Part shown: piece after piece, positions 8,135 to 40,994 of the stretch
Layout of the letters: each line of letters begins with the position of its first letter
How positions within the stretch are numbered: position 1 is the first letter of the stretch
Assembly (NCBI GenBank): GCA_024695205.1
Contig: JAILIQ010000054.1
Location: 1 to 44,224, forward strand
Origin: Lachnospiraceae bacterium
Lineage (GTDB): Bacteria; Bacillota; Clostridia; Lachnospirales; Lachnospiraceae
Length of the DNA: 44,224 nt
Direction: 5' to 3'
Notes under the pieces: generated by a model
Seen by the model: only the letters and a program-made list of their open reading frames with translations
The model's database searches: none
Told to the model about the DNA's origin: nothing
Program-made: the position numbers and the translations under genes

Positions 8135-8190
8135 TAAGGAAGAGTATCACAGGATGTTATGTGATCAAACAGGATTTTGGAGGTTTTCTG

Positions 8191-9888: not shown

Positions 9889-9907
9889 TTTAAGGAGAAT
9901 ACGCTAT

Positions 9908-14379: not shown

Positions 14380-14383
14380 TATA

Positions 14384-15034: not shown

Positions 15035-15072
15035 ATCTCTTTTTAATGTGGTCGTTTTTGCATACTTTTTTT

Positions 15073-15103
15073 AAAAGGCTGAAAAGACACAGCCTTTTTC
15101 TTT
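15073..15103 (+). terminator. Rho-independent terminator after the DUF624 pair
   Basis: Stem AAAAGGCTG / CAGCCTTTT with an 8-nt loop, followed by TTTTTCTTT. Confidence 0.7.
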
Positions 15104-15251
15104 GTATATAATCAACAATAAATTGAGGCAGTGCCTTTGGAAACATATACATTTTTTCATGTGTTTTCCGGGCTGATTAAGAATAATGACCAACTGAGGC
15201 GTTGAGTATCCAATATACTTGCGACACTGTGTACAAAAAACGGAGGCATTT

Positions 15252-18188
15252 ATGATCAGGGGAAGAAAGATGAGAAACGGATTTACGATCGTAGCCATGG
15301 TGCTGGCGATCGCAATGGTGATCCTCACCCTTGAGCCCTACGCCACGATCATGGCGGCTACCGGCGCGAAGCTGAAGGAAAAGTATGTCGGCTTTGAAGG
15401 CGTACCGGTAGAGTGGAAATACGGCGCGGGAGAGAATGTTTTCAGCTACAGGGACACAAAAGAGTCTTATACGGGCATCCCTTCGGCATCTTCCGAGATC
15501 GCGGTCGCTCCCGGAAGCATCAGGGACGAGAACGGACAGGCTGCCGTAACGGCTTTTGAACAGAAGGAAGCTTACTTCTCGGCAGGCGACGGGGAATATT
15601 TCGAATTTGATGTCGAAGTTCCCGAAACGGCCGTATATGCGATCGAATTTGATTACTATCTGCCCAAGGGCAGTTCGGATTCGGCGAAGAGAGCGCTGTA
15701 TGTCGACGGCGAGTATCCTTTTACCGAAGCCGGAAGCATCGAGTTTGCACGTTTCTTCAGGGATGAGGGCGAACCGGTCCTCAACAGTATAGGAGACGAG
15801 ACAAGACCCAAGCAGATCACCATAGACGGATGGAGGACTACCGGTCTTAAAGATACTTCGGGTATAACCTCCGAGGATTTCACGGTCCTCTTAAATGCCG
15901 GAAAGCATACGATCAGGCTTGTAACAATGAAGACCGGCATGTATATCTCAGGCATCAGGCTGTGTGCACCGAAGAAGGTCTTAAGCTATGCAGAGGTCAA
16001 ATCCGGGTATGCTGCGAAGGGCTACACGGAAGCACAGACCGCAACGATCAATTTCCAGGCCGAGCTTACGGCCACAGAGAAGAATGATCCTACACTTCGC
16101 CGTGAAAATGACGGTGATCCGTTCGTTGTCCCCAAGTCCGACGTAAACCGCAAGCTCAACGTAATGGGCGGTTACCGCTGGAGAAAGGGCAATCAGAGCA
16201 TCACATGGGAATTTGATGTTGACGCGGACGGTCTTTACAAGATCGGCCTGTATGTAAAGCAGCAGTGGAATGACGGCCTTCCGTCCTACAGACAGATCGC
16301 AATTGACGGAGAGGTTCCTTTTGAGGAACTGATGGAGTACAAGTTCGAATATGACACAAAATGGAAACTCCGTACTCTTTCGGACAGCAGCAATCAGCCT
16401 TTTGAGTTTTATCTTACAAAGGGCCATCATTCGCTGACCATGACGGCCAAGATGGGCGAGCTCGGCGATGTGCTCACATCCATCCAGGAAGATATCGTAG
16501 TCCTTTCGGACATGCTCCTTGATATCAACCTGATTGCGGGCAGCTCACCCGACCCCAACTACGATTACAAGTTTTTCGAGAAGATACCGGATATGAAGGA
16601 ACAGATGGAATATCTTCTTGAAAGCATGGAATACAAATATCAATACGTGAACGGTATGTCGGAGAAGACTCCGGCCATCGCCAACAACTTCCTGACCATA
16701 AAGGCACAGATACAGGAAATGCTTAACGATCCGTTCAGTATTGCCAAGAAAACAGGCGATCTGCAGAATTCGCAGAAGAATCTTTCCGACTGGTATCTGT
16801 CACTGCAGAACGAACCGCTTGTCATCGACAGCTTCTATGTTGGTCCGATGAGTGATAAATGGGTCAGCAAGACCTCCAATTTCTTCCAGAGGCTCGGCGT
16901 TACCTTCAAGCAGTTCATTTCTTCGTTCAGCAAGGATTATGACAATGTCGGCGGTGTTCTTTCCGAAGACGTCGTCGTTACGGATACGATCAATGTCTGG
17001 ATAGCCCGCGGTACCGAATGGGCCGAGGTTATCAAGGAAATGGCGGATGAGGACTTTACTCCCAGGACCGGCATCGCGATCAACGTGAACGTTCTTCCGG
17101 CTTCCCAGCTGAATGCCGGCAATGTCAACGCAATCATGCTTTCGATCACTTCCGGCAAGGCTCCCGATGTGGCGCTCGGCGTGGATATCACCTCTCCGGT
17201 TGAATTTGCGATCAGGGATCAGGTATATGATCTTTCGCAGATGGAAGGCTTTGACGAGGTCAGGGACCGTTTCGTTCCCGCAACGCTTACTCCTTACGAG
17301 TACCGCGGCGGCACATATGCGATACCCGAGACGATGAACTTCAATGTAATGTATTACAGGAAGGATCTTCTGAGCAAATTCGGTATAGATCTTCCGAATA
17401 CCTGGGAGGATATGTACGATTATGTTCTCCCCGCATTGTATCAGGAAGGACTTCAGTTCTACTTTGCAAGGGATTTCACACAGTTCCTTTATCAGAACGG
17501 CGGTGCGTTCTATACGCCGGACGGTCTGAAGTCGGCACTCGACACGCCCGAAGCATATCTGGCATTTAAGGAATATACGGAACTGTTTACCAACTACGGT
17601 GTTCCGGAGACGGCGAATTTCTATCAGTACTTCAGATCGGGCATCATGCCTCTCGGAGTAGGTGATTTCAATATGTACATGCAGCTGTCTGTTGCGGCAC
17701 CGGAGATCGCCGGAAAATGGGGCATCGTTCCCCTGCCCGGACATGTCATGGCAAACGGCGAGATAGACAGGACTGCGGGCGGTATTACCGAGAAGGGCGA
17801 TATCATCATGAAGCAGTCCACGAAGCCGAAGCAGAGCTGGGCGTTCTTAAAATGGTGGTCAAGCGCGGATGTTCAGACAAGATTTGCCAAGGAAGTTGAG
17901 GCAATGATCGGCGCCGAGGCCCGCTGGAATACAGCCAACAAGGATGCGTTCCTGAGCCTGTCCTGGAATACGGCCGATATCGAGACGCTTCAGGAAGAGT
18001 GGCGCTGGGCCAAGGAAATACCTACAGTCCTGGGCGGATATATGACAACGAGACATCTTACCAATGCATGGACCAGCGTGGTCATCAGCGGTATGGATAT
18101 TAGAGAGGCCATGGAGCGTGCAGTTAAGGACATTAACCGTGAGCTTGTTATGAAACAGGAAGAGTACGGAGTGATTTCAAATGACTAA
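15252..18188 (+). CDS. Giant (978 aa) TM-anchored extracellular solute-binding protein: duplicated CBM-like beta-sandwich modules plus a helical linker plus an ABC family-1 SBP domain
   Basis: ATG 15252 lies after GGAGG. There is an N-terminal TM helix (FTIVAMVLAIAMVILTL) and no lipobox. Internal duplication: EYFEFDVEVPETAVYAIEFDYY..ALYVDGEYPF..GKHTIRLV versus ITWEFDVDADGLYKIGLYVKQQ..IAIDGEVPF..GHHSLTMT. The C-terminal ~430 aa look like a sugar SBP (INVWIARGTEW..., WGIVPLPG). Confidence 0.75.
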   Translation: MIRGRKMRNGFTIVAMVLAIAMVILTLEPYATIMAATGAKLKEKYVGFEGVPVEWKYGAGENVFSYRDTKESYTGIPSASSEIAVAPGSIRDENGQAAVTAFEQKEAYFSAGDGEYFEFDVEVPETAVYAIEFDYYLPKGSSDSAKRALYVDGEYPFTEAGSIEFARFFRDEGEPVLNSIGDETRPKQITIDGWRTTGLKDTSGITSEDFTVLLNAGKHTIRLVTMKTGMYISGIRLCAPKKVLSYAEVKSGYAAKGYTEAQTATINFQAELTATEKNDPTLRRENDGDPFVVPKSDVNRKLNVMGGYRWRKGNQSITWEFDVDADGLYKIGLYVKQQWNDGLPSYRQIAIDGEVPFEELMEYKFEYDTKWKLRTLSDSSNQPFEFYLTKGHHSLTMTAKMGELGDVLTSIQEDIVVLSDMLLDINLIAGSSPDPNYDYKFFEKIPDMKEQMEYLLESMEYKYQYVNGMSEKTPAIANNFLTIKAQIQEMLNDPFSIAKKTGDLQNSQKNLSDWYLSLQNEPLVIDSFYVGPMSDKWVSKTSNFFQRLGVTFKQFISSFSKDYDNVGGVLSEDVVVTDTINVWIARGTEWAEVIKEMADEDFTPRTGIAINVNVLPASQLNAGNVNAIMLSITSGKAPDVALGVDITSPVEFAIRDQVYDLSQMEGFDEVRDRFVPATLTPYEYRGGTYAIPETMNFNVMYYRKDLLSKFGIDLPNTWEDMYDYVLPALYQEGLQFYFARDFTQFLYQNGGAFYTPDGLKSALDTPEAYLAFKEYTELFTNYGVPETANFYQYFRSGIMPLGVGDFNMYMQLSVAAPEIAGKWGIVPLPGHVMANGEIDRTAGGITEKGDIIMKQSTKPKQSWAFLKWWSSADVQTRFAKEVEAMIGAEARWNTANKDAFLSLSWNTADIETLQEEWRWAKEIPTVLGGYMTTRHLTNAWTSVVISGMDIREAMERAVKDINRELVMKQEEYGVISND

Positions 18189-19128
18189 AACTAGTAAGGT
18201 TCCGCAAATGAACATGTCGCTCGACAATGACTGGAGATCGCGGGCGAAGAGGTTCATACGGAAGAACTGGATCGGATACGCGTTTCTTGCGCCCTTTGTA
18301 ATACTGTTTACGATATTCATCGTAGCTCCGGTTCTTACGGCAATAGGCTTAAGCTTTACCGATTACAACATGATGCAGACTCCTCATTTTGTCGGAGTCA
18401 ATAACTACAAGCTGTTGTTTCTGGACGATGAGGTTTTCATCACCGCGCTTTCAAACACGATAAAATTCGCGGTCATCACCGGTCCTATCGGTTATCTGCT
18501 TTCCTTCTTTGCAGCATGGGTTATCAACCAGCTTAAATTTAAGCGGTTTTTCGCACTTGCGTTTTATGCTCCTTCTATTACATCGGCTGTTGCGATGTCA
18601 ACGATCTGGATGGTAGCCTTCTCAGGCGACAGACTCGGATATATCAATAATTTCCTGTTAAATCACGGATTTATTGATGAACCGATCCTCTGGAACACAG
18701 ACCCGACTTACATCATGGGCGTTGTAATGTTCATCCAGCTGTGGATGAGTATGGGTACAGGCTTCCTTGTATTCCTTGCTGGTCTGCAGAACGTTGACAG
18801 GTCGATGTACGAAGCTGGTGCCATAGACGGTGTCAAAAACAAGTTTCAGGAACTGTTCTATATCACACTGCCCGCAATGAAGCCCCAGCTGCTGTTCGGT
18901 GCGATCAATTCGATCACCGGATCCTTCGCGGTATTTGAGATCGCTGTTCAGGTGGCGGGCATGCCAAGCCCGAATTACGCAGGACATACGATAGTGGCGC
19001 ACCTGTTCGATTACGCTTTCATACGTTTCCAGATGGGTTATGCGTCAGCGATAGCGGTTGTGCTGTTCCTTATCACTTTCCTGCTCGGCAAGGTGGTATT
19101 CAGATTCCTGTCATCGAAAGATGAATAA
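18181..19128 (+). CDS. Sugar ABC transporter permease (MalF/LplB-like)
   Basis: Six TM helices and an EAA-loop region (YEAGAIDGVKNKFQELFYITLP). The start overlaps the SBP stop by 8 nt, which suggests translational coupling. Confidence 0.88.
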   Translation: MTKTSKVPQMNMSLDNDWRSRAKRFIRKNWIGYAFLAPFVILFTIFIVAPVLTAIGLSFTDYNMMQTPHFVGVNNYKLLFLDDEVFITALSNTIKFAVITGPIGYLLSFFAAWVINQLKFKRFFALAFYAPSITSAVAMSTIWMVAFSGDRLGYINNFLLNHGFIDEPILWNTDPTYIMGVVMFIQLWMSMGTGFLVFLAGLQNVDRSMYEAGAIDGVKNKFQELFYITLPAMKPQLLFGAINSITGSFAVFEIAVQVAGMPSPNYAGHTIVAHLFDYAFIRFQMGYASAIAVVLFLITFLLGKVVFRFLSSKDE

Positions 19129-19191
19129 AAGAAACTCTCCGGACTGTTTAAACCGGATAAGAAAACATAAGTCACCGGGAGATAGTGAATT

Positions 19192-20073
19192 ATGATAAAG
19201 ATAAAATGGTTCAAAGGACAATGGCTGCATATTACATTCGGCAAAACACTGCTGTATGTGGTCATGATCGCACTTGTTGCATTTACGGTCCTTCCGCTCA
19301 TATACGTGGTAGTTACCGCGTTCAAGCCGCTTGACGAGCTGTTCGTTTACCCGCCGCAGTTCTTTGTAAGAAGACCTACGACCAAGAACTTCTCGGATCT
19401 GGTAATAACACTGGGCAGCTCTACGGTGCCGTTTACCAGATATGCCTTCAACAGTATCGTTGTTACGATCTGCATCGTATTTCTGACGGTCTGCGTGTCA
19501 TCGCTGGCAGCATATTCGCTGGTAAAGTTCAAGCCCAAGGGCGGCAAGTTCATATTTGACCTGATACTTATGGCGCTGATGTTCTCGGCGCATGTTACCA
19601 GGATCCCGAGCTACATGATCGTAAACAAGCTGAACCTGATCAATACCTACTGGGCGCTGATACTTCCGAATATCGCAGTTGCGTATAACTGTTTCCTTAT
19701 GAGGCAGTTCATACAGCAGTATCCGGATGAACTGATCGAAGCCGCCAGGATAGACGGAGCCGGTGAACTCAAGATCTTCATCAAGATGGTAATGCCTGCG
19801 CTCGCGCCGGCATGGTCGACTCTGATCGTATTCTCGTTTGTGACCAACTGGAACGATTATTTTTCACCTTTGATCTACATCACAAGCCAGGCAATGAAGA
19901 CTCTTCCTCTGGCACTGCAGACGATAAGCGGAGGCGCTGCGGGCATGAGTGTCGGACGTGCGGGAGCTGTTGCCGCATCGACACTGCTCATGACGGCACC
20001 TACGGTAGTAATATTTACGATCATGCAGGGCAAGGTTATGGAAACAATGGCATATTCTGGTATTAAAGGGTGA
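19192..20073 (+). CDS. Sugar ABC transporter permease (MalG/LplC-like)
   Basis: EAA loop IEAARIDGAGELKIFIKMVMP and six TM helices. Confidence 0.88.
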   Translation: MIKIKWFKGQWLHITFGKTLLYVVMIALVAFTVLPLIYVVVTAFKPLDELFVYPPQFFVRRPTTKNFSDLVITLGSSTVPFTRYAFNSIVVTICIVFLTVCVSSLAAYSLVKFKPKGGKFIFDLILMALMFSAHVTRIPSYMIVNKLNLINTYWALILPNIAVAYNCFLMRQFIQQYPDELIEAARIDGAGELKIFIKMVMPALAPAWSTLIVFSFVTNWNDYFSPLIYITSQAMKTLPLALQTISGGAAGMSVGRAGAVAASTLLMTAPTVVIFTIMQGKVMETMAYSGIKG

Positions 20074-20087
20074 TACGGGAGGTTAGT

Positions 20088-22247
20088 GTGAAAAGGATTA
20101 GTCGAATATCAGCTTTGATGCTGGCATTCCTCATGACGGTCATGTTGATATGTCCGGTCAGGGCGGATGCGGCGCAGTCAGAGAGCTACGTTACCGGCGA
20201 CGATAACTACCGGCAGCCGGTTCCCGAATGCTATGTTGTTACCGACATCATCAATAACCTTCGTGGTTTTGAAGACAAGAACGGCACATTCAGAAAGCCC
20301 CAGGATCTTTTCATCGATGACAATGATTTTATCTATGTGGTGGATACGGGCAATAAGCGTATCGTCAAGATGAATCCCGATTTTGAGACTGTTGCGACAT
20401 TTAAAGGGCCCGGCAAGGCATTTGCCAATCCCCAGGGAATCTTCGTAGATGACGACGGCGACATGTATGTTGCCGACACGGAAAACAACCGGATCGTTCA
20501 TATGGATCCGGAGGGCGCTCTGGTGGAGGAATTTGTCAATCCCGAGAGCGAGCTTGACACGGGAGCTGTATTTACTCCCACAAAGCTTGTTGTAACCCAG
20601 ACAGGATATATCTACACCGTAAAAGGTGAGAATATCATGGCGATCGACGGCAATAACGGTTTCCGCGGTTTCTACGGACAGACCAACATCGGATACGACC
20701 TTGCGGAAGCGCTGTTCAGAATGTTCGCGTCGGAAAGGCAGAAAGCCGTTCACACCAAAAAGCTCGCAGCCTCATATATCAATCTTACCTACGGTAAGGA
20801 CGGAATGATCTATGCTACCAGCATGGAGCGCGAGGAAGGCGAGATCAAGAAGCTGAATTCGATCGGTACGAATATTTACCGTAAATACAAGACAGTCGGC
20901 AATTCGCTTCGTAACCCGATCACCGATTTTATAGAAAATAAGCTGTTAAAGACCGTCGTTGCCGGACAGAGCTTCAAATTCGGCGAGTACTTTGACGATG
21001 ACGGCAACTATATAGAACCTGTATTTGTTGATGTCTGTGTTGACAATAACGGCATCGTTACCGTGGTGGAGCAGCTCAACGGCAAGGTTTACCAGTACGA
21101 CCAGGACGGCAGGATGCTTGTTGCGTTCGGCGGACTCGGAGAGAAGAACGGAACATTTACAAGACCGAGCGCGATCGATGTCGACAGCAAGGGCAGACTG
21201 TACGTGCTCGACCAGATCAATAATAATATCCAGGTATTTGAGCCGACGGAATTCATCCAGTATATCCATGATGCGACTTCGGCTTACAATAACGGTGATT
21301 ACGCCAGATCCTACGAGCTGTGGAATACGGTCCTTTCGATCGATGAAAACTATACGCTCGCACATGTAGGTATCGCAAGAGCCTATTACAAGCAGCAGCA
21401 GTACAAGGATGCGATGGAAGAGTCCAAGATCGTGGATGACCGTGATGTTTACACGATGGCCTTCGACGAGTACAAATATGAGGTCCTCAGAGCTCATTTC
21501 TTCCCGATAATCCTTACGGCTGTCATTATCATTGTTGCGGTGTTACTGTTCATAGGCTGGTTCCACAGGTTCGGAACGAAGAAATACTGGGAATTCATCG
21601 AACACCGCAAGCCTAAGATGAGCATCGGCGACGGGCTGACATATTGCTTCTATGCGATATTCCATCCGGTAGATGCCATGGAGGGTATCAAATACAACCG
21701 CGACAGACTGAATACGGCGGTTCCGATCATCATATTTGTAACGGCTTTTGTTGTACGGATCGCTTACCTTTATGTTGTTCATTTTCCGCTGGCTTCGATC
21801 GAGACCGAGGATATCAATCCCTGGTTTGAAATGGTGAAGCTGCTGATAGTTCCGCTGTCATGGATACCCGCATCGTTTATGGCAACAAGTATTTCGGGCG
21901 GCGAGAGTAAAGTAAAGGAAATAACCTTTGCAAGCGCGATCTCGCTGGTACCTTTTATCGTTATCAATGTACCGCTCATGTTCCTTTCGAACATCATGTC
22001 GAAGTCACAGCGTTCATGGTACGGCGTATTTTCGACACTTGCGTACATCGGACTGTTCCTGATACTTCTTATAGCCATGATGGTGCTGAACAATTATACC
22101 TTCGGTAAAACGATCGGAATGATGTTCGTAGCGGCATTCCTGATGCTTGTGCTGTGGCTTGTAATGCTGCTGTGCTATGTACTGTCGGGACGTGTTATCC
22201 AGTTTGTAATGTCAATAATCGAGGAGTTCAGGATTAACTTCCTGTGA
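20088..22247 (+). CDS. Signal peptide + NHL-repeat beta-propeller + TPR-like segment + C-terminal Yip1-like polytopic membrane domain; function unknown
   Basis: GTG 20088 lies 5 nt after GGGAGG. The signal peptide is VKRISRISALMLAFLMTVMLICPVRADA. NHL-type blades include FIYVVDTGNKRIVKMNPDFE, DMYVADTENNRIVHMDPEG and GRLYVLDQINNNIQVFEP. A TPR-like segment follows (YNNGDYARSYELWNTVLSIDENYTLAHVGIARAYYKQQQYKDA). Then come one TM helix and a 5-TM Yip1-like block. Confidence 0.7.
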   Translation: MKRISRISALMLAFLMTVMLICPVRADAAQSESYVTGDDNYRQPVPECYVVTDIINNLRGFEDKNGTFRKPQDLFIDDNDFIYVVDTGNKRIVKMNPDFETVATFKGPGKAFANPQGIFVDDDGDMYVADTENNRIVHMDPEGALVEEFVNPESELDTGAVFTPTKLVVTQTGYIYTVKGENIMAIDGNNGFRGFYGQTNIGYDLAEALFRMFASERQKAVHTKKLAASYINLTYGKDGMIYATSMEREEGEIKKLNSIGTNIYRKYKTVGNSLRNPITDFIENKLLKTVVAGQSFKFGEYFDDDGNYIEPVFVDVCVDNNGIVTVVEQLNGKVYQYDQDGRMLVAFGGLGEKNGTFTRPSAIDVDSKGRLYVLDQINNNIQVFEPTEFIQYIHDATSAYNNGDYARSYELWNTVLSIDENYTLAHVGIARAYYKQQQYKDAMEESKIVDDRDVYTMAFDEYKYEVLRAHFFPIILTAVIIIVAVLLFIGWFHRFGTKKYWEFIEHRKPKMSIGDGLTYCFYAIFHPVDAMEGIKYNRDRLNTAVPIIIFVTAFVVRIAYLYVVHFPLASIETEDINPWFEMVKLLIVPLSWIPASFMATSISGGESKVKEITFASAISLVPFIVINVPLMFLSNIMSKSQRSWYGVFSTLAYIGLFLILLIAMMVLNNYTFGKTIGMMFVAAFLMLVLWLVMLLCYVLSGRVIQFVMSIIEEFRINFL

Positions 22248-22264
22248 TTTAAGGAGTAATCAGC

Positions 22265-24547
22265 ATGGGTGAGAAGATTAAGAGATTCTTTCTTGACCGG
22301 ATCGGATCGATCGTATTCCTGGTCATTATCGCGATCCTGCTCGTTATAGGTACGGGAAGGGTAAAAACGGCCAGATCCAATGCGATAACATACAGCGATG
22401 ATTATGAAGCGCCCGAGAAGGAAGCTGATCTGACAGGCGCCGGTGAATATGTATCGATAGCCGAAAATGGCAAGCTGGAGCTCCTGTACAACGATGTCAA
22501 GGGAGCAATACAGGTCAGAAATCTCGAAGACGGTTATCTGTGGAAATCGATCGTTGACGAAGAGGTTTATCCGAAGCTTTCCAGGGCAAATGCCCAGTGG
22601 AAGCTGAACATGCAGTCGGCGATACATATCAAGTATAATGACCTGAAGAAGCGCGATTCGGGCGTAAAAGAGCTTTACGCGGCCAAGGATTGCGGATATC
22701 TTTCATCTGAGTATATCGAAAACGGAGTTGCGGTAACATACGGATTCCTGGCACCGGGTATCTACATTACCGTTGAATATACGATAGATGGGGATGAACT
22801 TGTAGTGAAGATCCCGTACGAAAAGATACAGGAATATTCCAAATTTGCCGTAGCAAGCATTTCGGTTCTTCCCTATATGGGTGCCTGCGGCAATGAGAAT
22901 GACGGATATCTTTTCTACCCGGACGGAAGCGGTGCCATAACAGCTTTTGACAGAGTGGCGGAGCGTGCCGCGAATGTCAAGATGTCCAATTACTTTGTAT
23001 ATCTTAACCGTTCGGTTTCTTTTAACAATATATTTTTCCTGGATAATTACGACCGCTACACAGCTGCGATGCCGGTATGCGGTATCAAGAACGGCGACAA
23101 TGCGTTATTTGCCTATATGGCAGAGGGAGCCGGCAATTCATGCGTAACGGTTTATCCTTCGGGTGTTGTTGTCGATCTGAACCGTATCAGCTTCGATATA
23201 TTTACGAGAAATGTTTATAACGTGGACATGTACAATATCTCGAGCGGCAATGACGCCCAGGCGACCGGCGGACAGGTTCAGCGTGTAGACAAGTTTGTGA
23301 TCCCCGAGGATAAGGTCATCAGGTACGCGTTCCTTTCGGGTGACAAGGCCAATTACAGCGGAATGGCCGAGGTTTACAGAGAATATCTTATAAGAAACAG
23401 CCTTCTGAATGACTCGCAGGCCGCCGACAACGGCAAGCTCGCACTCAAGCTTCTTATGGGAACGACCAAGCCGGGTATTGTATTTGACGAATATATCACG
23501 ATGACCACTTACGATCAGGTTATCGAGATACTCGAAAGCCTTAAATCGAAAGGCATTTCCAATGTCGAGCTTGTTCTGAACGCATGGCAGAAGGGCTGGG
23601 AGGACTATGAAAACTGGGGTCCCGATTCGCATCTGGGCGGAAAGAAAGGCTTGAAGAAGCTGGCAGAGTATGCAGACGCCAATGCCGACCTGAATGTCTA
23701 TCTTGCAACGGATATGGTGATCGCCAATTCCGAGACGAGCGGACTCAACGAGGAAGAGGATGTTGCCTATAATGGTCTGAACATTGAGATCTCGGCAGGT
23801 TCGACCGACGGCAAGAACTGGTATCTGAGAAATCCTTATGCTATAAAGCAGGTGAACGAGGCATTCCTTAAGAAGCTTGAAAAATATGATGCTGTCGGTG
23901 TTGCATATATGGATCTCGGCAAATATGCCTATGCGGATTTCAACGAATGGCATCCCTACATTAAATCGGAATCGGTCAAAGAGCTGATGGGGATCTTTGC
24001 GGATACAAAGAAAACCGGCAGGCTGATAGCTTCGGCAGGCCAGAACCAGTACGCATTTGCCAGCAGTGATTACATTTATGATATGAAAGAGGATCCGTTC
24101 GGTCTGTCGATCACGGATTACGCGGTTCCTTTTGCACAGATGGTTCTGTCGGGAAGGCTTTCGTACTCTTCGGAAAGCGCAGGCAATCTTGCCTACGACC
24201 TCCAGACCCAGAAGCTTAAATGGATCGAATTCGGTTCCGCTCCGAGCTTTTATCTGACTTACGAATCGGCGCTGAAGCTTCGTAATACAGGCAATGACCG
24301 GTTGTTCAGTTCCACATTCTCGGACTGGGAGCCCGAAGTGGTAAGTGTTTACGATGAGTACAGAAGGAATTTCGGGAAGATCTTCGGGGTAAGGATGAAG
24401 GAACACGAGGTTCTCGGACCTGATTACAGAAAGGTGACTTACGAGAACGGATATATCGTTTACATCAACTATTCCGATAAGGAAGCGGTTATCGAAGGTG
24501 TGACCGTTCCCGCAAAGAACTATATCGTAACGGAGGGAGGACGCTGA
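22265..24547 (+). CDS. Uncharacterised 760-aa N-terminally membrane-anchored extracytoplasmic protein (resembles the family I remember as DUF5696; unverified)
   Basis: AAGGAG RBS. There is one N-terminal TM helix (IGSIVFLVIIAILLVIG) and no motif I can assign to a known CAZy family. The central and C-terminal part has an alternating beta/alpha character compatible with a TIM-barrel-like fold (inference only). Confidence 0.6.
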   Translation: MGEKIKRFFLDRIGSIVFLVIIAILLVIGTGRVKTARSNAITYSDDYEAPEKEADLTGAGEYVSIAENGKLELLYNDVKGAIQVRNLEDGYLWKSIVDEEVYPKLSRANAQWKLNMQSAIHIKYNDLKKRDSGVKELYAAKDCGYLSSEYIENGVAVTYGFLAPGIYITVEYTIDGDELVVKIPYEKIQEYSKFAVASISVLPYMGACGNENDGYLFYPDGSGAITAFDRVAERAANVKMSNYFVYLNRSVSFNNIFFLDNYDRYTAAMPVCGIKNGDNALFAYMAEGAGNSCVTVYPSGVVVDLNRISFDIFTRNVYNVDMYNISSGNDAQATGGQVQRVDKFVIPEDKVIRYAFLSGDKANYSGMAEVYREYLIRNSLLNDSQAADNGKLALKLLMGTTKPGIVFDEYITMTTYDQVIEILESLKSKGISNVELVLNAWQKGWEDYENWGPDSHLGGKKGLKKLAEYADANADLNVYLATDMVIANSETSGLNEEEDVAYNGLNIEISAGSTDGKNWYLRNPYAIKQVNEAFLKKLEKYDAVGVAYMDLGKYAYADFNEWHPYIKSESVKELMGIFADTKKTGRLIASAGQNQYAFASSDYIYDMKEDPFGLSITDYAVPFAQMVLSGRLSYSSESAGNLAYDLQTQKLKWIEFGSAPSFYLTYESALKLRNTGNDRLFSSTFSDWEPEVVSVYDEYRRNFGKIFGVRMKEHEVLGPDYRKVTYENGYIVYINYSDKEAVIEGVTVPAKNYIVTEGGR

Positions 24548-24551
24548 GAAT

Positions 24552-25514
24552 ATGGAAGAAGTTAAAAAGAAAAAGAAGCGTTCGCTCTCTCTGAGGACAA
24601 AGAACTCACTTAAAGGTCTGGTATTTGTTACACCGTTTATTATCGGACTTCTGGCCTTCTTCCTCTATCCGCTGTTCTTCTCGCTGAGGATCAGCGTTGC
24701 GGAGAAGGTTGAGATCCTGGGCATGAAGCTGTCGGGATTTACCCTGTATTCATTCAAGAGAGCATTTGTTGAGGATTCGGAGTTCCTGCCTACATTTGCT
24801 TCAACGGTAAAATATACGCTTACAACATTTCCCCTGACCATAGTTCTTTCGCTGATCATCGCGATCATCCTGAATAAGAACATCAAGGGAAGAGGATTAT
24901 TCAGAGTCATATTCTTCATCCCTTTCCTTCTCGGAAGCGGTGAGATCATGACACAGATCCTCAATCAGGGCGTTGACAGAGCGGTACTCAACATCATGGA
25001 CGGCAGGATCATTCCGTACAATGTTCTGAGTTATTTCGGAGCCAATATAGTTGATATCGTCCAGAATGTATTCGGAACCCTTGTTACGGTCCTGTGGCGA
25101 AGCGGTGTACAGATACTGCTGTTCCTTGCGGGCCTTCAGAGCATCTCACCGTCTCTTTACGAAGCGGCGAGGATCGACGGAGCGACCGAATGGGAGCTGT
25201 TCTGGAAGGTTACGATACCGATGATATCACCTATGATGCTGCTGAATCTCGTTTATACCATCGTTGATTCGTTCACGAGTCTTGACAATGAGCTGCTCGG
25301 TTATATCAAGACTTACGGATTTGCGAATGCGGAATTCTCCTACGCATCGGCACTCGGCTGGATATATTTTGCGTTTATCGGAGTTCTGGTCGCGATCATT
25401 TTCGGTATCATGAAGAATTATATGCATACAAGCGAAGTTGAGGAGGTAAGGAAGCGTGAGCGCAAACACAGAGTCATTACAATCGAAAAAGCACGCAGAC
25501 GGACTTTCGAGTAA
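24552..25514 (+). CDS. Sugar ABC transporter permease (MalF/LplB-like), second system
   Basis: EAA loop YEAARIDGATEWELFWKVTIPMISP and six TM helices. It starts 4 nt after the upstream stop. Confidence 0.88.
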   Translation: MEEVKKKKKRSLSLRTKNSLKGLVFVTPFIIGLLAFFLYPLFFSLRISVAEKVEILGMKLSGFTLYSFKRAFVEDSEFLPTFASTVKYTLTTFPLTIVLSLIIAIILNKNIKGRGLFRVIFFIPFLLGSGEIMTQILNQGVDRAVLNIMDGRIIPYNVLSYFGANIVDIVQNVFGTLVTVLWRSGVQILLFLAGLQSISPSLYEAARIDGATEWELFWKVTIPMISPMMLLNLVYTIVDSFTSLDNELLGYIKTYGFANAEFSYASALGWIYFAFIGVLVAIIFGIMKNYMHTSEVEEVRKRERKHRVITIEKARRRTFE

Positions 25515-26469
25515 GATGAAGCTTCGTATGCAGCTGTTTGCGAGAAAATATTTCACAAGCTCCGGAGTCAAACTGCTCCTTGTAAGGATCGTCATGTATC
25601 TGCTTGTATTCGGGCTTGCGTTCGTATTTATCTATCCGTTCCTGTATATGATCGTCAATTCGCTTATGTCGAATGCGGATCTGAACAGCAGCTCGGTACG
25701 CTGGCTGCCCACGGAGCTGAAATTCGAGAATTACGCGATCGCGCTTCAGCTGATGAACGGCAAGATATTTGCGAAGAATTCACTGATCGTTACGGTAGTT
25801 GCATGTATCGGCCATATCTTTTCCTGTTCGTTCATCGGATACGGTTTTGCAAGGTTTAATTTTCCGGGAAAGAACTTTTTGTTCATGTTTGTCATACTGG
25901 CGTTCATAGTTCCCACACAGACCCTGATAATCCCCTCGTACCTGACCTATTCGAACCTGAAATGGCTGAATACTTTCCTGCCTCTTACGGTTCCGGCATT
26001 CTTTGGATTCGGACTCAGAGGCGCGCTGTATATCTTCCTGTTCAGACAGTTCTTCCTGACGGTTCCTAAGAGCCTTGAGGAAGCGGCAAGGATCGACGGC
26101 TGCGGATTTATGAAAACCTATTGGAAGATAGTTTTCCCGCTTGCCCGCGCTACCATAGTTGTTGCACTTGTACTTGCGGTAGTATGGCACTGGAATGATG
26201 CCTATGAGCCGGGTATCTATATCAGCAGCCCGACCAAGCAGTTCCTGCCGCCCAGGATCAGGCTGATCATCGAAGCGACCAACGCTCTTCCCGATCAACA
26301 GCAGGAGATGCTGAGACAGTTGGGACTTGAAGACGGCGAAGACACGCTGAACAATGCGGTCGTTATGGCCGGTGCGGCAATAATCAGTGCTCCGGTACTG
26401 CTGTTCTTCGCATTTGCCCAGAGACAGTTCATGCAGGGTATTGAACGTTCCGGTATCACCGGAGAATGA
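25456..26469 (+). CDS. Sugar ABC transporter permease (MalG/LplC-like), second system
   Basis: EAA loop LEEAARIDGCGFMKTYWKIVFP. GTG 25456 follows AGGAGG but overlaps the upstream gene by 59 nt. An alternative start, ATG 25516 (MKLRMQLF), lies 1 nt after the upstream stop, so the 5' end is uncertain. Confidence 0.82.
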   Translation: MSANTESLQSKKHADGLSSKMKLRMQLFARKYFTSSGVKLLLVRIVMYLLVFGLAFVFIYPFLYMIVNSLMSNADLNSSSVRWLPTELKFENYAIALQLMNGKIFAKNSLIVTVVACIGHIFSCSFIGYGFARFNFPGKNFLFMFVILAFIVPTQTLIIPSYLTYSNLKWLNTFLPLTVPAFFGFGLRGALYIFLFRQFFLTVPKSLEEAARIDGCGFMKTYWKIVFPLARATIVVALVLAVVWHWNDAYEPGIYISSPTKQFLPPRIRLIIEATNALPDQQQEMLRQLGLEDGEDTLNNAVVMAGAAIISAPVLLFFAFAQRQFMQGIERSGITGE

Positions 26470-26773
26470 TGAATCTTTAAGTAAAATGTATTTTTCGGAT
26501 ATATCCCATTACGGAGGACCGGGTATCTGAAGAAGGTTCTTTAAGGAAACGGTATTCAGTCTTTCAAACCGGATGTATTCGTTAAATAAATGATGCAGAT
26601 GTCTGTGTCTAATATCACAGATCGCCGGAAACCGGTTGGAATACCGGAAAGGCGCAACTTTCCGGCAACCGTACGGCAGACCGTGTGGCACAATAAAAGT
26701 GCCGTGCAGTCTTCAAGGGGGAGATCTGTAAGACATGGCCATCAAAACCAAACTATTTTACAGGAGGCGTAAA

Positions 26774-28477
26774 ATGAAGAAATTGAGAAAGACCGTAGCT
26801 GTACTGCTCGCGCTTGCCATGATCTTAAGCCTTGCAGCATGTACAAAGGACACAGGATCAGAGAATCCTACCAATGCTCCTACACAGGAAGCTGCACAGC
26901 CTACCAAGGCAGAGCAAAAGACCGACGACGGCAATAAGACCGACGACGGCAACAAGACACCCGAAACTACTCCCGAGCCTACAGCGGAAGTACTTCCTCC
27001 TCTTGCTATCAGCGTTTCACTTCCCAGTGACAATGAGCATGTGGCAGACGGAACAAATGATGTTGAGATGCAGTATTATCAGAAGCTGATCGATGGTATC
27101 CAGGCTTATACCAATACCAATATCACATGGGAGTGGCTTGCACAGGCTACATACTATGATGATGAGCACCTCGGACTTAAGATCGCTACAGGCGATGTAG
27201 CCGATGTTCTCGTAGTCGGTAAGAACGCTGCTTTCCTTGATGCTGCAGAGAACGGACTCTTCTGGGATCTTGCTCCCTACATTGATGAGTTTGACAACCT
27301 TGCAACCATTCCTGAGGCAACAAGACAGAATGCTTCTTACAACGGTAAGATGTACGGACTTCCCCGTTCAAGAACACTGGCTCGTAACGGTCTCGGATAC
27401 CGTCTTGACTGGCTGAACAACCTTGGCCTTGCAGAGCCCACAACTTGGGAAGATTTCGAAGCTATGCTTTACGCATTCACTTACAACGATCCTGACGGAA
27501 ACGGTGTTGACGATACCGTTGGTCTTGGTCTTGATAACTGGGGCGGCGTATTCAACATCATGATGACCTGGTTTGGCGTTCCCAATGAGTGGGGTCTTGA
27601 CGCAAGCGGCAACCTTATCTACAAGGCAGAGACCGAAGAGTACAAGAATGCTCTTAAGGCTTTCCGTGAGCTCTATTCAGAAGGCGTTATCAACAACGGC
27701 GCAAACGGTATCCCTGATTTCCGTGAGGTTGATCCCGGTAAGGCAAGAGACCAGCTGTTAAGACAGAGTCTTGCAGGCTGCGGCGTACAGGTTCTTGACG
27801 ATCAGAGAAAGGTTGAGACCTACTTCGAGGATAACGGACTTTCAACAGCAGATGAGCCTATTTACACACTTCAGGGTTATGTTGATACAGGCAAGGGACC
27901 TCTTTGCTATCCTACAACCGGTATGAACAACATGATCGCTATTTCCACAAAGAACATCAAGACAGAAGATCAGCTTCGTCGTGTTCTTGGATTCCTTAAT
28001 GACATTAACGACGGCGAGATGCTCAACCTCATTGAGTATGGCTGGGAAGGCGAGACCTACAGGATCAACGATGAAGGCTATGTAGAGCTGTTCACCGCTG
28101 AAGAGCTTGAAGCAAACGGCGTTGGTTCGACCAAGTACAACTTTGGTTTCAACCAGGTTATCCCTTACTTCACAGCACCTGCAAATGCACGTCCTGTTGA
28201 TCGTAACCTTTACACATCAGCTATCACTATTCTTGAGCAGGAACTCTATGCTGAGGATATCCAGTACTGCGTACCTAACTACGGTGCAAGCTTTACTTCG
28301 GATACCTATGTAACTCAGGGTGCAGACCTTGACAAGATCATTGCTGATGCACAGCTTGCATTCATCGTTGGCGAGATCGACGAGAGCGGTCTTAACGAAG
28401 CTATCAAGACCTGGAAGCAGGGTGGCGGAGATCAGGTTACCAAGGAAATGAATGACCTTTACAAGGCAAGCAAATAA
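26774..28477 (+). CDS. Extracellular solute-binding lipoprotein, large LplA/YtcQ-like sugar SBP
   Basis: ATG 26774 lies after AGGAGG. Lipoprotein signal MKKLRKTVAVLLALAMILSLAAC (lipobox LAAC), followed by a low-complexity linker with KTDDGN KTDDGN. SBP-like body of 567 aa. Confidence 0.85.
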   Translation: MKKLRKTVAVLLALAMILSLAACTKDTGSENPTNAPTQEAAQPTKAEQKTDDGNKTDDGNKTPETTPEPTAEVLPPLAISVSLPSDNEHVADGTNDVEMQYYQKLIDGIQAYTNTNITWEWLAQATYYDDEHLGLKIATGDVADVLVVGKNAAFLDAAENGLFWDLAPYIDEFDNLATIPEATRQNASYNGKMYGLPRSRTLARNGLGYRLDWLNNLGLAEPTTWEDFEAMLYAFTYNDPDGNGVDDTVGLGLDNWGGVFNIMMTWFGVPNEWGLDASGNLIYKAETEEYKNALKAFRELYSEGVINNGANGIPDFREVDPGKARDQLLRQSLAGCGVQVLDDQRKVETYFEDNGLSTADEPIYTLQGYVDTGKGPLCYPTTGMNNMIAISTKNIKTEDQLRRVLGFLNDINDGEMLNLIEYGWEGETYRINDEGYVELFTAEELEANGVGSTKYNFGFNQVIPYFTAPANARPVDRNLYTSAITILEQELYAEDIQYCVPNYGASFTSDTYVTQGADLDKIIADAQLAFIVGEIDESGLNEAIKTWKQGGGDQVTKEMNDLYKASK

Positions 28478-28555
28478 GACGATCTGCGGAAATGTACTGC
28501 GTTTCACGTAAGATGGGTAACTGTTTGACCACAGTATAAAATAATGTGAAATGGA

Positions 28556-28588
28556 GGGCAGTATGCATTGTATGTATGCTGCCCTTTT
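28556..28588 (+). terminator. Strong Rho-independent terminator after the lipoprotein SBP gene
   Basis: A 13-bp stem GGGCAGTATGCAT / ATGTATGCTGCCC (two G-U pairs) with a 3-nt loop, followed by TTTT. Confidence 0.8.
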
Positions 28589-28640: not shown

Positions 28641-30959
28641 ATGGCACAGCTTGAAAAGCTTAATCGGGGTCTTGTTGCCGTAAATACAGGCGAAGGCATA
28701 TTTGTTGCGTGGAGAATGTTCAGGGAAGAGGCAAAAGGTGCTGTAAAAGAGCGTCTAACGGGTACCGATTACAGACTGTACAGAAACGGTGAGGCTATTG
28801 CGCTAGTGACCGATTCGACGAATTATCTCGATAAGGAAGGAAAAGAAGGAGATACGTACTGCGTGGCTCCTGTCTGTGATGAAGCTGCGGACGCTGCAGG
28901 GAGTTTCACAAAATGCCCCGACGGAAGATTCGAGGGTCAAAAGTCTGAGACTGCAGAGGTTATCAAGGGGGGAAAGAATTATCTTGAGATACCTCTTAAA
29001 AAACCCGAAGGAGGAGTAACTCCCGCGGGAGAGGAATTTACATATTCCGCAAATGATATGAGCATCGGCGATGTGGACGGAGACGGCGAGCTCGAATATT
29101 TTGTAAAATGGGATCCGTCCAATTCACATGATGTTTCCCACAGAGGATATACCGGGAAATGCTATATTGATTGCTACAAGCTTGACGGAAGATTGCTGTG
29201 GCGCCTTGATATGGGTGTAAATATCCGTGCGGGTGCGCATTATACACAGTTTATGGTCTATGATTTTGACGGTGACGGAAAGGCCGAAATGTCGGTCAAG
29301 ACCGCACCCGGAACGAAGATGACAATATACGGCGATGACGGAAACGTCATTTCCGAGAAATATATAACCTTGCCCGATGGCGGGAAATATAAGGTAAACA
29401 GATTCGGTGATACGGTATGCGATAACTGTACGGAACCGTATGCTACTAAAACAAGGGTATCGGATGTAACAGTTCCGGGAGAGGATACTTCGGAAGAAAA
29501 TGCATTTGCAGTCGAGCGCAGGGCAACACATGAAGACAATTATGTCTGCTCGGCACAGGATTTTTATGAGTATACCGTAAACCGTTTTATGAACTGGCGC
29601 GAACATGAAGAGGTCAAGGCGGGGCACTGGCCCGATACGCTTGAGGAATGCTTCGGTATTGATAAAAAATATGAATATCCTCTCTCAAGAGAAGATGCAT
29701 GCGAACTTACAGATTATTTCATGGATGAATTTGCGCCGAAGCGCGATGGGAAGAATAAACTGCGTGAGTTTGAGGGCTTTATTTACGAGGGTCCTGAATA
29801 TCTGACGATGTTCGCGGGAACGGGCGAGGAGCTTGAGACGATATTCTTTCCGGTACCCAGAGGCGATGACGGCCTTATGTGGGGCGATTACGTCTGGAGA
29901 CGCATGGAGCCCTGCAACAGAGTGGACCGTTTCCAGTCGGGTGTCGGCTATCTTGACGGGGAACATCCCTTCCTGCTTATCTGCAGAGGCTATTATACAA
30001 GAAGCACGATCACGGCATACAGATTTGTGAACGGTAAGCATGAACTGTATTTTAAGGTTGATTCGGGACATGTGCCGATCAGCAATCCTTTCGGTTCCCA
30101 CAGTGATGTAAACGGTACCGATCCTGTATACGGCTGCATTACGGGACAGGGAGATCACAGTCTCGCGGTAGCGGATGTTGACGGGGACGGCTGTGACGAG
30201 ATAATCTACGGCGCCTGCACGATAGATAATGACGGAAGCGTGCTTTACTCCAGTACCGATAAAATGCCCGACGGCAGAGAAGTCAAGCTCGGACACGGAG
30301 ATTCGATGCATGTCGCAAGGATTGATCCGGACTGGCCGGGATTCCAGATATTCAATGTATTTGAGGGAGCCTCGGGTGTTCCTTACGGATATGCATTAAG
30401 AGATGCCCGTACAGGTAAGGTCCTGTTCGGTGAGCCTGCCGACCGCGACCTTGGCAGATGTATGATCGGAGATGTCGTACCCGGGGTAAGAGGTCTTCAG
30501 GTATGGGTCGGAAAGATACAGGACTGCCACGGGAATGTGCTTGATGCGAAACTGCTCGGTACCAATGCCAATATCAAGTGGGCAGCGGATCTGAGCACTC
30601 AGGTGGTTGACGGAGTGGACTATGTCGGCGGAAAGCATGTAGGGATCATAGGTGACAATACTCACGGGATCATGCTTGAACCGAAGGGATGTGCTACCAA
30701 TAACGGTACGAAAGGCAATCCCTGCCTGATAGCCGATATTTTCGGTGATTTCAGGGAAGAGATCGTACTCAGGACAGAGGACAGCTCGGCAGTCCGGATT
30801 TATATAAATACGGAGATTACCGATCATAAATTATTTACGCTGCTGCACGATCCCATGTACCGCTGCGGAGTCGCATGGCAGAATAACGTTTATAACCAGC
30901 CGTGCTACACTTCATTTTACTATGCTTCGGATATGGATTTCAGGGATATTCTTGCATAG
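28641..30959 (+). CDS. Rhamnogalacturonan lyase, polysaccharide lyase family 11 (YesW/YesX-like), no signal peptide
   Basis: GDVDGDGELEYFVKWDPSNSHDVS..GYTG, NIRAGAHYTQFMVYDFDGDGKAEM, VADVDGDGCDEIIYGA, DIFGDFREEIVLRTEDSSAVRIY and HDPMYRCGVAWQNNVYNQP match the PL11 beta-propeller. RBS GGGAGG. The stop is TAG. Confidence 0.9.
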   Translation: MAQLEKLNRGLVAVNTGEGIFVAWRMFREEAKGAVKERLTGTDYRLYRNGEAIALVTDSTNYLDKEGKEGDTYCVAPVCDEAADAAGSFTKCPDGRFEGQKSETAEVIKGGKNYLEIPLKKPEGGVTPAGEEFTYSANDMSIGDVDGDGELEYFVKWDPSNSHDVSHRGYTGKCYIDCYKLDGRLLWRLDMGVNIRAGAHYTQFMVYDFDGDGKAEMSVKTAPGTKMTIYGDDGNVISEKYITLPDGGKYKVNRFGDTVCDNCTEPYATKTRVSDVTVPGEDTSEENAFAVERRATHEDNYVCSAQDFYEYTVNRFMNWREHEEVKAGHWPDTLEECFGIDKKYEYPLSREDACELTDYFMDEFAPKRDGKNKLREFEGFIYEGPEYLTMFAGTGEELETIFFPVPRGDDGLMWGDYVWRRMEPCNRVDRFQSGVGYLDGEHPFLLICRGYYTRSTITAYRFVNGKHELYFKVDSGHVPISNPFGSHSDVNGTDPVYGCITGQGDHSLAVADVDGDGCDEIIYGACTIDNDGSVLYSSTDKMPDGREVKLGHGDSMHVARIDPDWPGFQIFNVFEGASGVPYGYALRDARTGKVLFGEPADRDLGRCMIGDVVPGVRGLQVWVGKIQDCHGNVLDAKLLGTNANIKWAADLSTQVVDGVDYVGGKHVGIIGDNTHGIMLEPKGCATNNGTKGNPCLIADIFGDFREEIVLRTEDSSAVRIYINTEITDHKLFTLLHDPMYRCGVAWQNNVYNQPCYTSFYYASDMDFRDILA

Positions 30960-34063: not shown

Positions 34064-34226
34064 TTTTATCTCCATGCTGCGGTTGTTACGGGCAGCGTAT
34101 GATTTTTATTTATCATTTTTCATTTTAACACAATATGGTTGTTTTTGCACATATTTTTTAAAATTTTGACATATTCAGGTATGGATTTGTTGTGAAAAGA
34201 TTTATTGCGGAGGTCTCAGACGGCAA

Positions 34227-39110: not shown

Positions 39111-39143
39111 AAAGATATCATTTTCAGATTACGGGGTTTGAAC

Positions 39144-40985: not shown

Positions 40986-40994
40986 GGCGATTTC

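Follow-up and report, generated by a model that had tools for sequence, protein, structure and literature searches.

What are two genes for surface proteins of no assigned function doing between two pairs of sugar permease genes? The question is posed by a block at positions 15252-28477 of contig JAILIQ010000054.1 (Lachnospiraceae bacterium, assembly GCA_024695205.1), a stretch that we analysed over its whole length of 44,224 nt and refer to as the window. Open reading frame (ORF) listing and scans against Pfam and NCBIfam resolved the block into eight genes, all on the plus strand and forming one co-directional unit: a giant solute-binding protein (SBP), permeases A1 and A2, a protein with NHL, TPR and Yip1-type parts, a DUF5696 protein, permeases B1 and B2, and a lipoprotein SBP (Table 1). 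An earlier reading of the DNA letters (the sequence-only reading) had seen here two ATP-binding cassette (ABC) sugar importers around two uncharacterized surface proteins, and had proposed a device for the capture or processing of pectic glycans. Our own answer, which we consider to have about an even chance of being right, is that the block is one co-inherited functional module, a cytoplasmic-membrane apparatus of Bacillota for the capture, trimming and import of glycans, probably complex plant sugars.

Conservation of the cassette

Loci related to the block were collected in three independent ways: (i) a genome scan with DUF5696 motifs, resulting in 59 loci, (ii) a metagenome scan with motifs of the NHL-Yip1 protein, resulting in 29 loci, and (iii) a whole-protein tblastn search against annotated plasmids, resulting in two loci. 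Gene order in each locus was then assigned by tblastn with every window protein, keeping the non-overlapping best assignments so as to avoid cross-hits between paralogues. Among the 79 unique loci, 56 contained the full core in the canonical order, namely giant SBP (N- and C-terminal parts), A1, A2, NHL, Yip1, DUF5696, B1, B2, and the 23 loci cut by contig ends followed the same order as far as they were present. A deviating gene order was found in none of the 79, nor in any of the 81 loci obtained when two annotated replicons are counted. The hosts comprise Lachnospiraceae, Acetatifactor, Lachnoclostridium, Epulopiscium, Oscillospiraceae/Ruminococcaceae, Acutalibacteraceae, Limnochordia and Paenibacillus, and the 81 loci are spread over at least four orders and two classes, with DUF5696 identities down to 29% among the 79.

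The two replicons are a plasmid of Paenibacillus cellulosilyticus KACC 14175 and pNP243 of Butyrivibrio fibrisolvens D1, where the order is the same at a DUF5696 identity of 26-29%, under the locus tags HUB94_RS00490-00525 and WAA20_RS20510-20545, respectively. The names assigned in RefSeq to these genes include "extracellular solute-binding protein", "YIP1 family protein" and also "DUF5696 domain-containing protein". The neighbourhood of giant SBP, Yip1 and DUF5696 genes that the sequence-only reading had mentioned for Clostridia and Paenibacillus is thus real, and the RefSeq gene names agree with it. Independent gene calls in a common gut species also confirmed the core order; both these calls and the RefSeq annotation place the Yip1, DUF5696 and B1 genes close together, often with overlaps of 1-4 nt at the junctions. 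That the two middle genes might part from the transporter genes in other genomes had been named beforehand as the observation that would undo the idea of a linked system; across the 81 loci they always occur together with both permease pairs.

On these comparisons the invariant core consists of seven genes, a number that rises to eight when NHL-TPR and Yip1 are encoded apart, and the second SBP, PL11 and DUF624 genes are lineage-specific accessories. The proposed eight-gene unit therefore survived in part: the seven-gene core is universal, but the lipoprotein SBP lies outside it. The second SBP adjoins B2 in 47/67 loci, 27 of 51 have PL11 at 5 kb or less from B2, and a DUF624 gene is located no more than 3 kb upstream of the giant SBP in 22/47. 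Taken by itself, the window might be read as two independent, ordinary CUT1 importers with two unrelated surface-protein genes between them by chance, as both permease pairs resemble standard MalFG-type pairs and each has an SBP nearby. Such a coincidence is highly improbable given an order that is invariant in the 81 loci and down to 26% identity, and given that the second SBP is dispensable and the middle genes never are. We rejected two unrelated importers on this synteny, which effectively excludes coincidental neighbours.

The genes that flank the core differ. Distant loci have AraC regulators, YesM/YesN-like two-component systems, GH38, BNR_2, GH43, DHDPS or unrelated genes at their flanks, and the rhamnogalacturonan-I (RG-I, "pectic") context would apply to the Lachnospiraceae clade only. 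In three loci from Limnochordia, which are diderm Bacillota (L051-L053, approximately 14000-20400), the cassette is followed by genes for a SpoIVB-like peptidase, BamA (Omp85/POTRA), Skp (OmpH) and LpxD, an outer-membrane biogenesis cluster.

A module that recycles or remodels an envelope or extracellular glycopolymer of the cell's own, rather than foraging for dietary glycans, would have a self-made substrate, and this would explain why the core is kept amid very different neighbouring catabolic genes; the adjacency to BamA, Skp and LpxD in Limnochordia points the same way. We nevertheless regard this explanation as rather improbable, since most loci have catabolic neighbours (PL11, GH43, GH38, BNR_2) together with AraC or YesMN-type regulators, DUF624 partners are typical of nutrient sugar importers, and two cultured strains carry the cassette on accessory replicons.

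The DUF5696 protein

The only Pfam family to match the 760-aa protein upstream of B1 is DUF5696; neither a glycoside hydrolase (GH) family nor any other family appeared at E≤5. The protein has a single N-terminal transmembrane helix, a type-II anchor. An AlphaFold2 (AF2) model built with 34 homologues (pLDDT 86.9, pTM 0.86) consists of this helix and a (beta/alpha)8 barrel flanked by beta-sandwiches on its N- and C-terminal sides, the predicted arrangement being the three-domain barrel fold of GH129 and GH101. A Foldseek comparison of the model placed two GH129 enzymes at the top of the PDB folds, ZgGH129 (5opq; E 8e-35, TM-score 0.63/0.72) and NagBb (5wzn; E 1e-27), followed by GH101 endo-alpha-N-acetylgalactosaminidases at about 1e-18 and then by GH36, GH31 and GH97. 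When PDB sequences were searched, a diverse DUF5696 profile reached NagBb (E 3.5e-6 over 130 residues) and ZgGH129 (E 1e-3, in three collinear stretches), and a narrower profile gave marginal values (E 0.6-0.9). Because the diverse profile reaches both enzymes, we read the relationship as homology that goes beyond a shared shape, and DUF5696 would be a distant relative of GH129, not a member of GH129 as that family is defined.

NagBb is an alpha-N-acetylgalactosaminidase and ZgGH129 a 3,6-anhydro-D-galactosidase; with GH101 they have the same three-domain architecture as DUF5696, with a partly broken barrel and TM-scores of 0.6-0.7. The GH101/GH129 barrel has been described (PMC8106489). DUF5696 differs from these enzymes in that identity is only about 14%, and in that it is membrane-anchored, extracellular and always encoded between ABC permease genes.

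Among 53 DUF5696 sequences of 29-100% identity, D220, D558, D618 and E655 were invariant and D645 was nearly so, and several aromatic residues and Asn/Arg were likewise invariant across the distant members. D558 and D618 are spaced by 60 residues and follow barrel strands 4 and 6, which we take to resemble the arrangement of GH31 and GH36; these two residues appear to be the best candidates for a catalytic pair. Catalytic competence is likely, and we predict that DUF5696 acts as an ecto-glycosidase. At 50% identity this large family comprises 5302 clusters (E≤1e-3), and the cassette probably includes a new glycoside-hydrolase-like family. Full-text searches of the literature returned no paper on DUF5696 or on the cassette neighbourhood, in agreement with the sequence-only reading, which had described such neighbourhoods as having no assigned function.

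The solute-binding proteins, the permeases and the ATPase

The giant SBP starts with a basic N-terminus and a single transmembrane helix (aa 9-27), a type-II anchor, and ends with a CUT1-type SBP domain, the SBP_bac_1 match covering aa ~590-880 and being confined to the last ~400 residues. The region in between (aa 36-572) was modelled with AF2 (pLDDT 81.8) as two beta-jelly-rolls followed by a helical bundle. In Foldseek the two beta-sandwiches matched carbohydrate-binding modules (CBMs) of families 35 and 6 (2w1w, 2w47, 2cdo, 7ehg) with TMt 0.56-0.69 over ~170 columns, giving the overall architecture of transmembrane helix, two CBM6/35-like beta-sandwiches, helical bundle and SBP domain. The nearest relative of the SBP domain is Lin1841 (5ysb; E 5e-20), which binds sophoro-oligosaccharides. 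In two giant-SBP homologues of 1064-1071 aa (P0356 and P0360), the first CBM-like module of this extracellular protein was seen to contain a Cys-rich insertion of ~40 residues with the pattern CxxC...CPxCGG, which is zinc-ribbon-like.

All four permeases matched BPD_transp_1, with UgpA/UgpE, GlcT/GlcU and MalF/MalG as the best NCBIfam matches, and all four possess an EAA-type motif for coupling to the ATPase. The pairs are paralogous, with 24% identity between A1 and B1 and 27% between A2 and B2 (blastp). The giant SBP matches SBP_bac_1 or SBP_bac_8, and the PDB relatives of both SBPs are sugar SBPs; family-1 SBPs and two MalF/MalG-type permeases with an EAA loop are the marks of CUT1 transporters (TC 3.A.1.1), and the transport parts are ordinary CUT1 components. 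The lipoprotein SBP, whose PDB relatives include 3omb (E 2.6e-16) and AlgQ1/AlgQ2 (~1e-8), belongs to the AlgQ/Smon0123-like class of large binders of acidic oligosaccharides, and resembles proteins that bind uronates and large oligosaccharides. A hidden Markov model (HMM) built from it located a relative at a distance of a few kb in some of the Paenibacillus and Clostridia loci.

An ABC ATPase gene was not found anywhere in the window, as the sequence-only reading had stated, and this is a consistent feature of the cassette, an ABC ATPase-like ORF being present in 1/92 cassette sources. In the P. cellulosilyticus copy, a ugpC ATPase gene (HUB94_RS00525; L092 1777-2886) precedes the giant SBP at a distance of 37 nt. 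No other cassette copy was seen to have a UgpC/MsmK-type ATPase of its own, another locus (L029) having a different, 581-aa ATPase-like ORF downstream, and the P. cellulosilyticus copy is a candidate for finding which ATPase powers both permease pairs.

The NHL-TPR-Yip1 protein

The protein encoded between A2 and DUF5696 is composed of a cleavable signal peptide, a six-bladed NHL propeller, a TPR stalk, one transmembrane helix and about five more, the transmembrane helices lying within aa 471-699. The propeller contains NHL repeats in three stretches (Pfam NHL, E 3.2e-17), accompanied by TPR matches, and in a profile search of the PDB its closest relatives were the propellers of the PknD sensor and Pizza (E 1e-57), with TRIM71 also matched. 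The Yip1 domain named in the sequence-only reading had a mixed outcome: the transmembrane domain of the window copy did not match Pfam Yip1 even at E≤10, but 18 of 36 aligned orthologous transmembrane domains matched Yip1 (PF04893; best E 9e-15) and no other family.

NHL-TPR and Yip1 are encoded by separate, adjacent genes in L051-L053, L055 and L057 and in B. fibrisolvens. This split form is found in Limnochordia, in Oscillospiraceae, in a Bacteroidota-labelled fragment of a metagenome-assembled genome (MAG; L057) and in B. fibrisolvens, and the separate Yip1 gene of L051 scored 38.4 bits against a cut-off of 28.6. Since the two parts are either fused or split into adjacent genes, they are suggested to interact.

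The resemblance of the propeller to the extracellular sensor of the PknD kinase raises a further explanation, in which the NHL-TPR-Yip1 protein would work with the giant SBP as a sensor, signalling the presence of glycan outside the cell to AraC or two-component regulators; transport would be secondary. In relatives the cassette is indeed accompanied by a two-component system or by a divergent AraC gene, and AraC or YesM/YesN-like systems flank many loci. These regulators lie outside the invariant core, however, the Yip1 protein has no recognisable cytoplasmic output domain, and the cassette is intact in the window although the divergent AraC gene of its relatives is absent; we consider a primary role in sensing to be quite improbable.

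A proposed module for glycan capture, trimming and import

What directly supports reading the block as a capture, trimming and import module is the set of domain identities, topologies, coupling motifs and invariant synteny seen in the sequences and the models; from these we infer binding, catalysis, complex formation and substrate. In the proposed mechanism the CBM-like modules, perhaps with the NHL propeller, would hold a polymer or large oligosaccharide at the membrane, and the giant SBP domain would load permease pair A. DUF5696 would cleave or debranch the bound glycan outside the cell, and its product would be imported via permease pair B, helped in Lachnospiraceae by the dedicated AlgQ-like lipoprotein SBP. 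The NHL-TPR-Yip1 protein might act as a scaffold, or as an additional binding subunit, holding the ecto-proteins beside the two translocons, and a shared MsmK/UgpC-type ATPase, usually encoded elsewhere, would power both pairs.

The PL11 lyase of the window is without a signal peptide at its N-terminus; for this reason it is presumably cytoplasmic and would need imported oligosaccharides. Given that need, the RG-I enzymes encoded nearby and the AlgQ-like second SBP, the window substrate is probably RG-I fragments, whose breakdown the cytoplasmic PL11 and enzymes of the rhamnose pathway would finish. The proposal of a pectic capture or processing device gains support at the fold level from the CBM6/35-like modules and the GH129/GH101-like DUF5696, but pectin is not a property of the core, as PL11 accompanies it in only the 27 of 51 loci mentioned above.

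Several observations weigh against the module as proposed. The flanking enzymes vary by lineage and do not point to a single substrate for the core. The CBM6/35 assignment holds at the level of the predicted fold: Pfam CBM_6 and CBM35 did not match the giant SBP, the sole match apart from its SBP domain being a borderline GH115_C (25.1 bits), and a profile search of PDB sequences with aa 40-560 returned nothing. The Yip1 call for the window protein is transitive and runs through the orthologues. The sampling of loci rests on conserved peptide motifs and one tblastn search, and DUF5696 genes outside the cassette could exist among the ~5300 clusters. With regard to catalysis, no conserved acidic residue follows barrel strand 5 in the 53 DUF5696 sequences, and a low-confidence HMM alignment sets the nucleophile of ZgGH129, D486, opposite D550, which is Asp in 28/53, with D558 eight residues later. 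Lastly, for the Limnochordia loci and for L054 and L056 the HMM of the lipoprotein SBP found no second SBP within 10 kb, so that pair B would be without a nearby SBP of its own there, which a simple two-importer picture does not explain.

The last two points, taken with the position of DUF5696 always directly upstream of B1, often with an overlapping junction, and with a membrane tether the same as that of the giant SBP, could also be accounted for if DUF5696 were not an enzyme at all; it would then be a glycosidase-fold receptor that docks on pair B and delivers substrate to it in place of a classical SBP, and the lipoprotein SBP would be a later addition. We judge this unlikely. Four invariant acidic residues accompanied by invariant aromatic and Asn/Arg residues are what an active site typically shows, both pairs could be served by the giant SBP, and no type I ABC importer is known to use a TIM-barrel receptor.

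Within the capture, trimming and import reading, a tighter arrangement is conceivable, in which all seven or eight proteins form one membrane supercomplex that physically couples depolymerisation to the import of two products. The Yip1/NHL-TPR scaffold would hold the CBM-bearing receptor and the GH129-like ecto-enzyme over two ABC translocons, and where a second SBP is lacking, the product of the enzyme would pass directly from it to permease pair B. Such a complex would be the Gram-positive counterpart of the utilisome of Bacteroidota. We offer this arrangement, with these details, as a tentative possibility that is more doubtful than probable. If it is true, DUF5696 would found a new glycoside hydrolase family and Yip1 would gain its first defined bacterial role, as a subunit of an ABC importer.

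Relation to known systems

The RG-I locus of Bacillus subtilis encodes the YesOPQ and YtcQP-YteP importers, both energised by MsmX, along with YesL and YesV (DUF624), YesT, YesU and the PL11 enzymes YesW and YesX. Like the window, it has CUT1 importers of one SBP and two permeases without an ATPase in the locus, and its DUF624, PL11, GDSL esterase, DUF1961 and AraC neighbours all have homologues in the window. It differs from the cassette in that it has no CBM-bearing anchored SBP, NHL-Yip1 or DUF5696 protein, and its importers are located in separate operons. AlgQ1/AlgQ2 and AlgM1M2SS of Sphingomonas sp. A1 represent the large SBP class for long acidic oligo- and polysaccharides that the window lipoprotein SBP matches; that system, however, has a single permease pair and its own ATPase, works in a Gram-negative periplasm, and is without a CBM-bearing SBP, Yip1 or DUF5696.

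In the Sus-like utilisomes of Bacteroidota, SusC/SusD, surface glycan-binding proteins and surface glycosidases form one unit that captures, cuts and imports glycan. A binding protein, a surface enzyme and a transporter are likewise encoded together in the cassette, but the Sus-like transporter is TonB-dependent and resides in the outer membrane, whereas the cassette encodes ABC importers of the cytoplasmic membrane; there is no homology between the two. Extra membrane subunits of ABC transporters also have precedents, namely MusI (DUF624) in MusEFGK2-MusI of Corynebacterium and the Yip1-family protein YknW in YknWXYZ of B. subtilis. In each case a small polytopic membrane protein is encoded with an ABC transporter that requires it, and both the DUF624/MusI and the Yip1 type occur here. 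YknWXYZ is a MacB-type exporter and not a sugar importer, and the Yip1 domain of the cassette bears a large extracellular NHL-TPR ectodomain.

No paper returned by the full-text searches describes the fixed combination in which two permease pairs are joined by an anchored SBP with CBM-like modules, an NHL-TPR/Yip1 protein and an anchored GH129-like protein. Lachnospiraceae of the rumen and gut commonly carry the cassette, which also occurs in soil Paenibacillus; these bacteria are major degraders of plant fibre. Should DUF5696 be an enzyme, it would represent a new glycoside hydrolase family related to GH129 and GH101; should the parts act together, they would constitute a new design of ABC sugar importer that combines two translocons with a Yip1 subunit and a CBM-bearing receptor, and a membrane-level analogue in Gram-positive bacteria of selfish glycan uptake. 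Both proposals can be tested directly, since the cassette is present in two strains that are in culture and have complete genomes, B. fibrisolvens D1 and P. cellulosilyticus KACC 14175.

Layout of the block and its signals

ORF calls and terminator folding confirmed that the eight co-directional genes are enclosed by two good terminators. A pattern scan of the block interior detected weak terminator-like sites, no commoner than in shuffled sequence, and the description of the block as operon-like is supported. The junction distances had been said to range from an 8-nt overlap to a 63-nt gap, apart from a single 304-nt gap. The 8-nt overlap of the giant SBP with A1, the 63-nt gap between A1 and A2 and the 304-nt gap between B2 and the lipoprotein SBP were reproduced; the range would be exceeded, however, at the B1/B2 junction if B2 starts at the GTG that is preceded by the ribosome-binding site GAGGAGG, since B2 then overlaps B1 by 59 nt. 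This overlapping start agrees with independent gene calls in relatives. The 304-nt spacer before the last gene has no match in Rfam, and neither has any other part of the window. Its counterpart in relatives measures 33-400 nt, so its length is not conserved, and a transcript-processing or stability element is possible.

Table 1. Features of the block and of its immediate neighbours in the window (MFE, minimum free energy).
Feature	Coordinates	Strand	Characteristics
First DUF624/MusI-family membrane protein of tandem pair	13705..14379	+	DUF624 E 3.7e-13; MusI_fam E 6.9e-27
Second DUF624/MusI-family membrane protein	14384..15034	+	DUF624 E 5.3e-14; MusI_fam E 8.1e-32
Upstream intrinsic terminator, closing the DUF624 pair	15073..15098	+	-12.8 kcal/mol, z -3.4
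Promoter-like site that would drive the cassette	15084-15112	+	AAGACA-17-TATAAT; overlaps the upstream terminator
Giant SBP	15252..18188	+	978 aa; SBP_bac_1 E 1.5e-19
Permease A1, MalF/UgpA-like	18181..19128	+	BPD_transp_1; UgpA E 1.6e-26; motif EAGAIDG
Permease A2, MalG/UgpE-like	19192..20073	+	BPD_transp_1 E 7e-16; UgpE E 1e-37; motif EAARIDGA
NHL/TPR/Yip1 protein	20088..22247	+	719-725 aa; alternative start GTG 20070
DUF5696 protein	22265..24547	+	760 aa; Pfam DUF5696 E 5e-137
Permease B1, MalF-like	24552..25514	+	BPD_transp_1; motif EAARIDGA
Permease B2, MalG-like	25456..26469	+	BPD_transp_1 E 1.6e-17; start GTG 25456, alternative ATG 25516
Spacer before the last gene	26470..26773	+	304 nt, highly structured; MFE -99.3 kcal/mol, z -5.15
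Lipoprotein SBP	26774..28477	+	567 aa; SBP_bac_1 E 5e-9; lipobox LAAC
Strong intrinsic terminator, block end	28553..28586	+	15-16 bp hairpin, -23.5 kcal/mol, z -5.7, then UUUUAU
PL11 rhamnogalacturonan lyase	28641..30959	+	RGL11_C E 4e-160; N-terminus MAQLEKLNRG...

Neighbouring genes in the window

By gene content, the surroundings of the block are an RG-I/rhamnose locus. The flanking RG-I and rhamnose genes noted in the sequence-only reading are real and comprise a PL11 lyase, a PcRGLX-like lyase, a GDSL esterase, a DUF1961 protein, an FGGY kinase and the tandem DUF624/MusI pair. ABC importer genes, PL11, the PcRGLX-like lyase and an AraC gene are co-located in the window, which is the composition of a Gram-positive polysaccharide utilisation locus. 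The closest homologues were found in MAGs of rumen Lachnospiraceae, and one metagenome assembly holds a 100%-identical contig.

Judged by their family matches, the two DUF624 proteins are YesL/YesV-like accessories of sugar ABC importers, associated with the cassette and lying upstream of the terminator, outside the core. The second gene of the pair likely starts at ATG 14384 and not at TTG 14204, its N-terminus MLDKIFNFD... corresponding to codon 61 of the long ORF. In close relatives (for example L002, 1403-2524, minus strand) the DUF624 pair is separated from the giant SBP by a divergent gene that encodes an AraC-family regulator of 373 aa; in the window this position (15035-15251) is taken up by a 217-nt spacer with the terminator and the promoter-like site and no divergent AraC gene. 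The AraC gene that the window does contain (33056-34075) was considered as an orthologue of the divergent AraC gene and rejected, the similarity being confined to the helix-turn-helix region.

Just downstream of the PL11 lyase, a plus-strand gene at 31101-33026 encodes a Peripla_BP_3 sugar-binding domain of the LacI type joined to a C-terminal GGDEF diguanylate cyclase, a domain combination that may link sugar sensing to c-di-GMP. Further downstream, the AraC regulator and a CmpB-like membrane protein gene are separated from the PcRGLX-like lyase by two plus-strand genes encoding a very acidic 172-aa protein (35250-35768) and a 1109-aa protein (35781-39110), both of them with zero Pfam matches even at E≤5. 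A single TAG in frame, at 40983-40985, breaks the PcRGLX-like lyase gene itself (39138-42041, plus strand) in two, the resulting ORFs being 39138-40985 and 40995-42041. The match to Pfam domain 3 of the lyase continues across the TAG, which could represent a pseudogene, a sequencing error or read-through. At the other side of the block, the longest ORFs of the GDSL esterase-like (YesT-like) gene at 8161-9888 and of the DUF1961 (YesU-like) gene at 9806-10567, both on the plus strand, overlap by ~80 nt, and the DUF1961 gene probably begins at a start codon further downstream than 9806.

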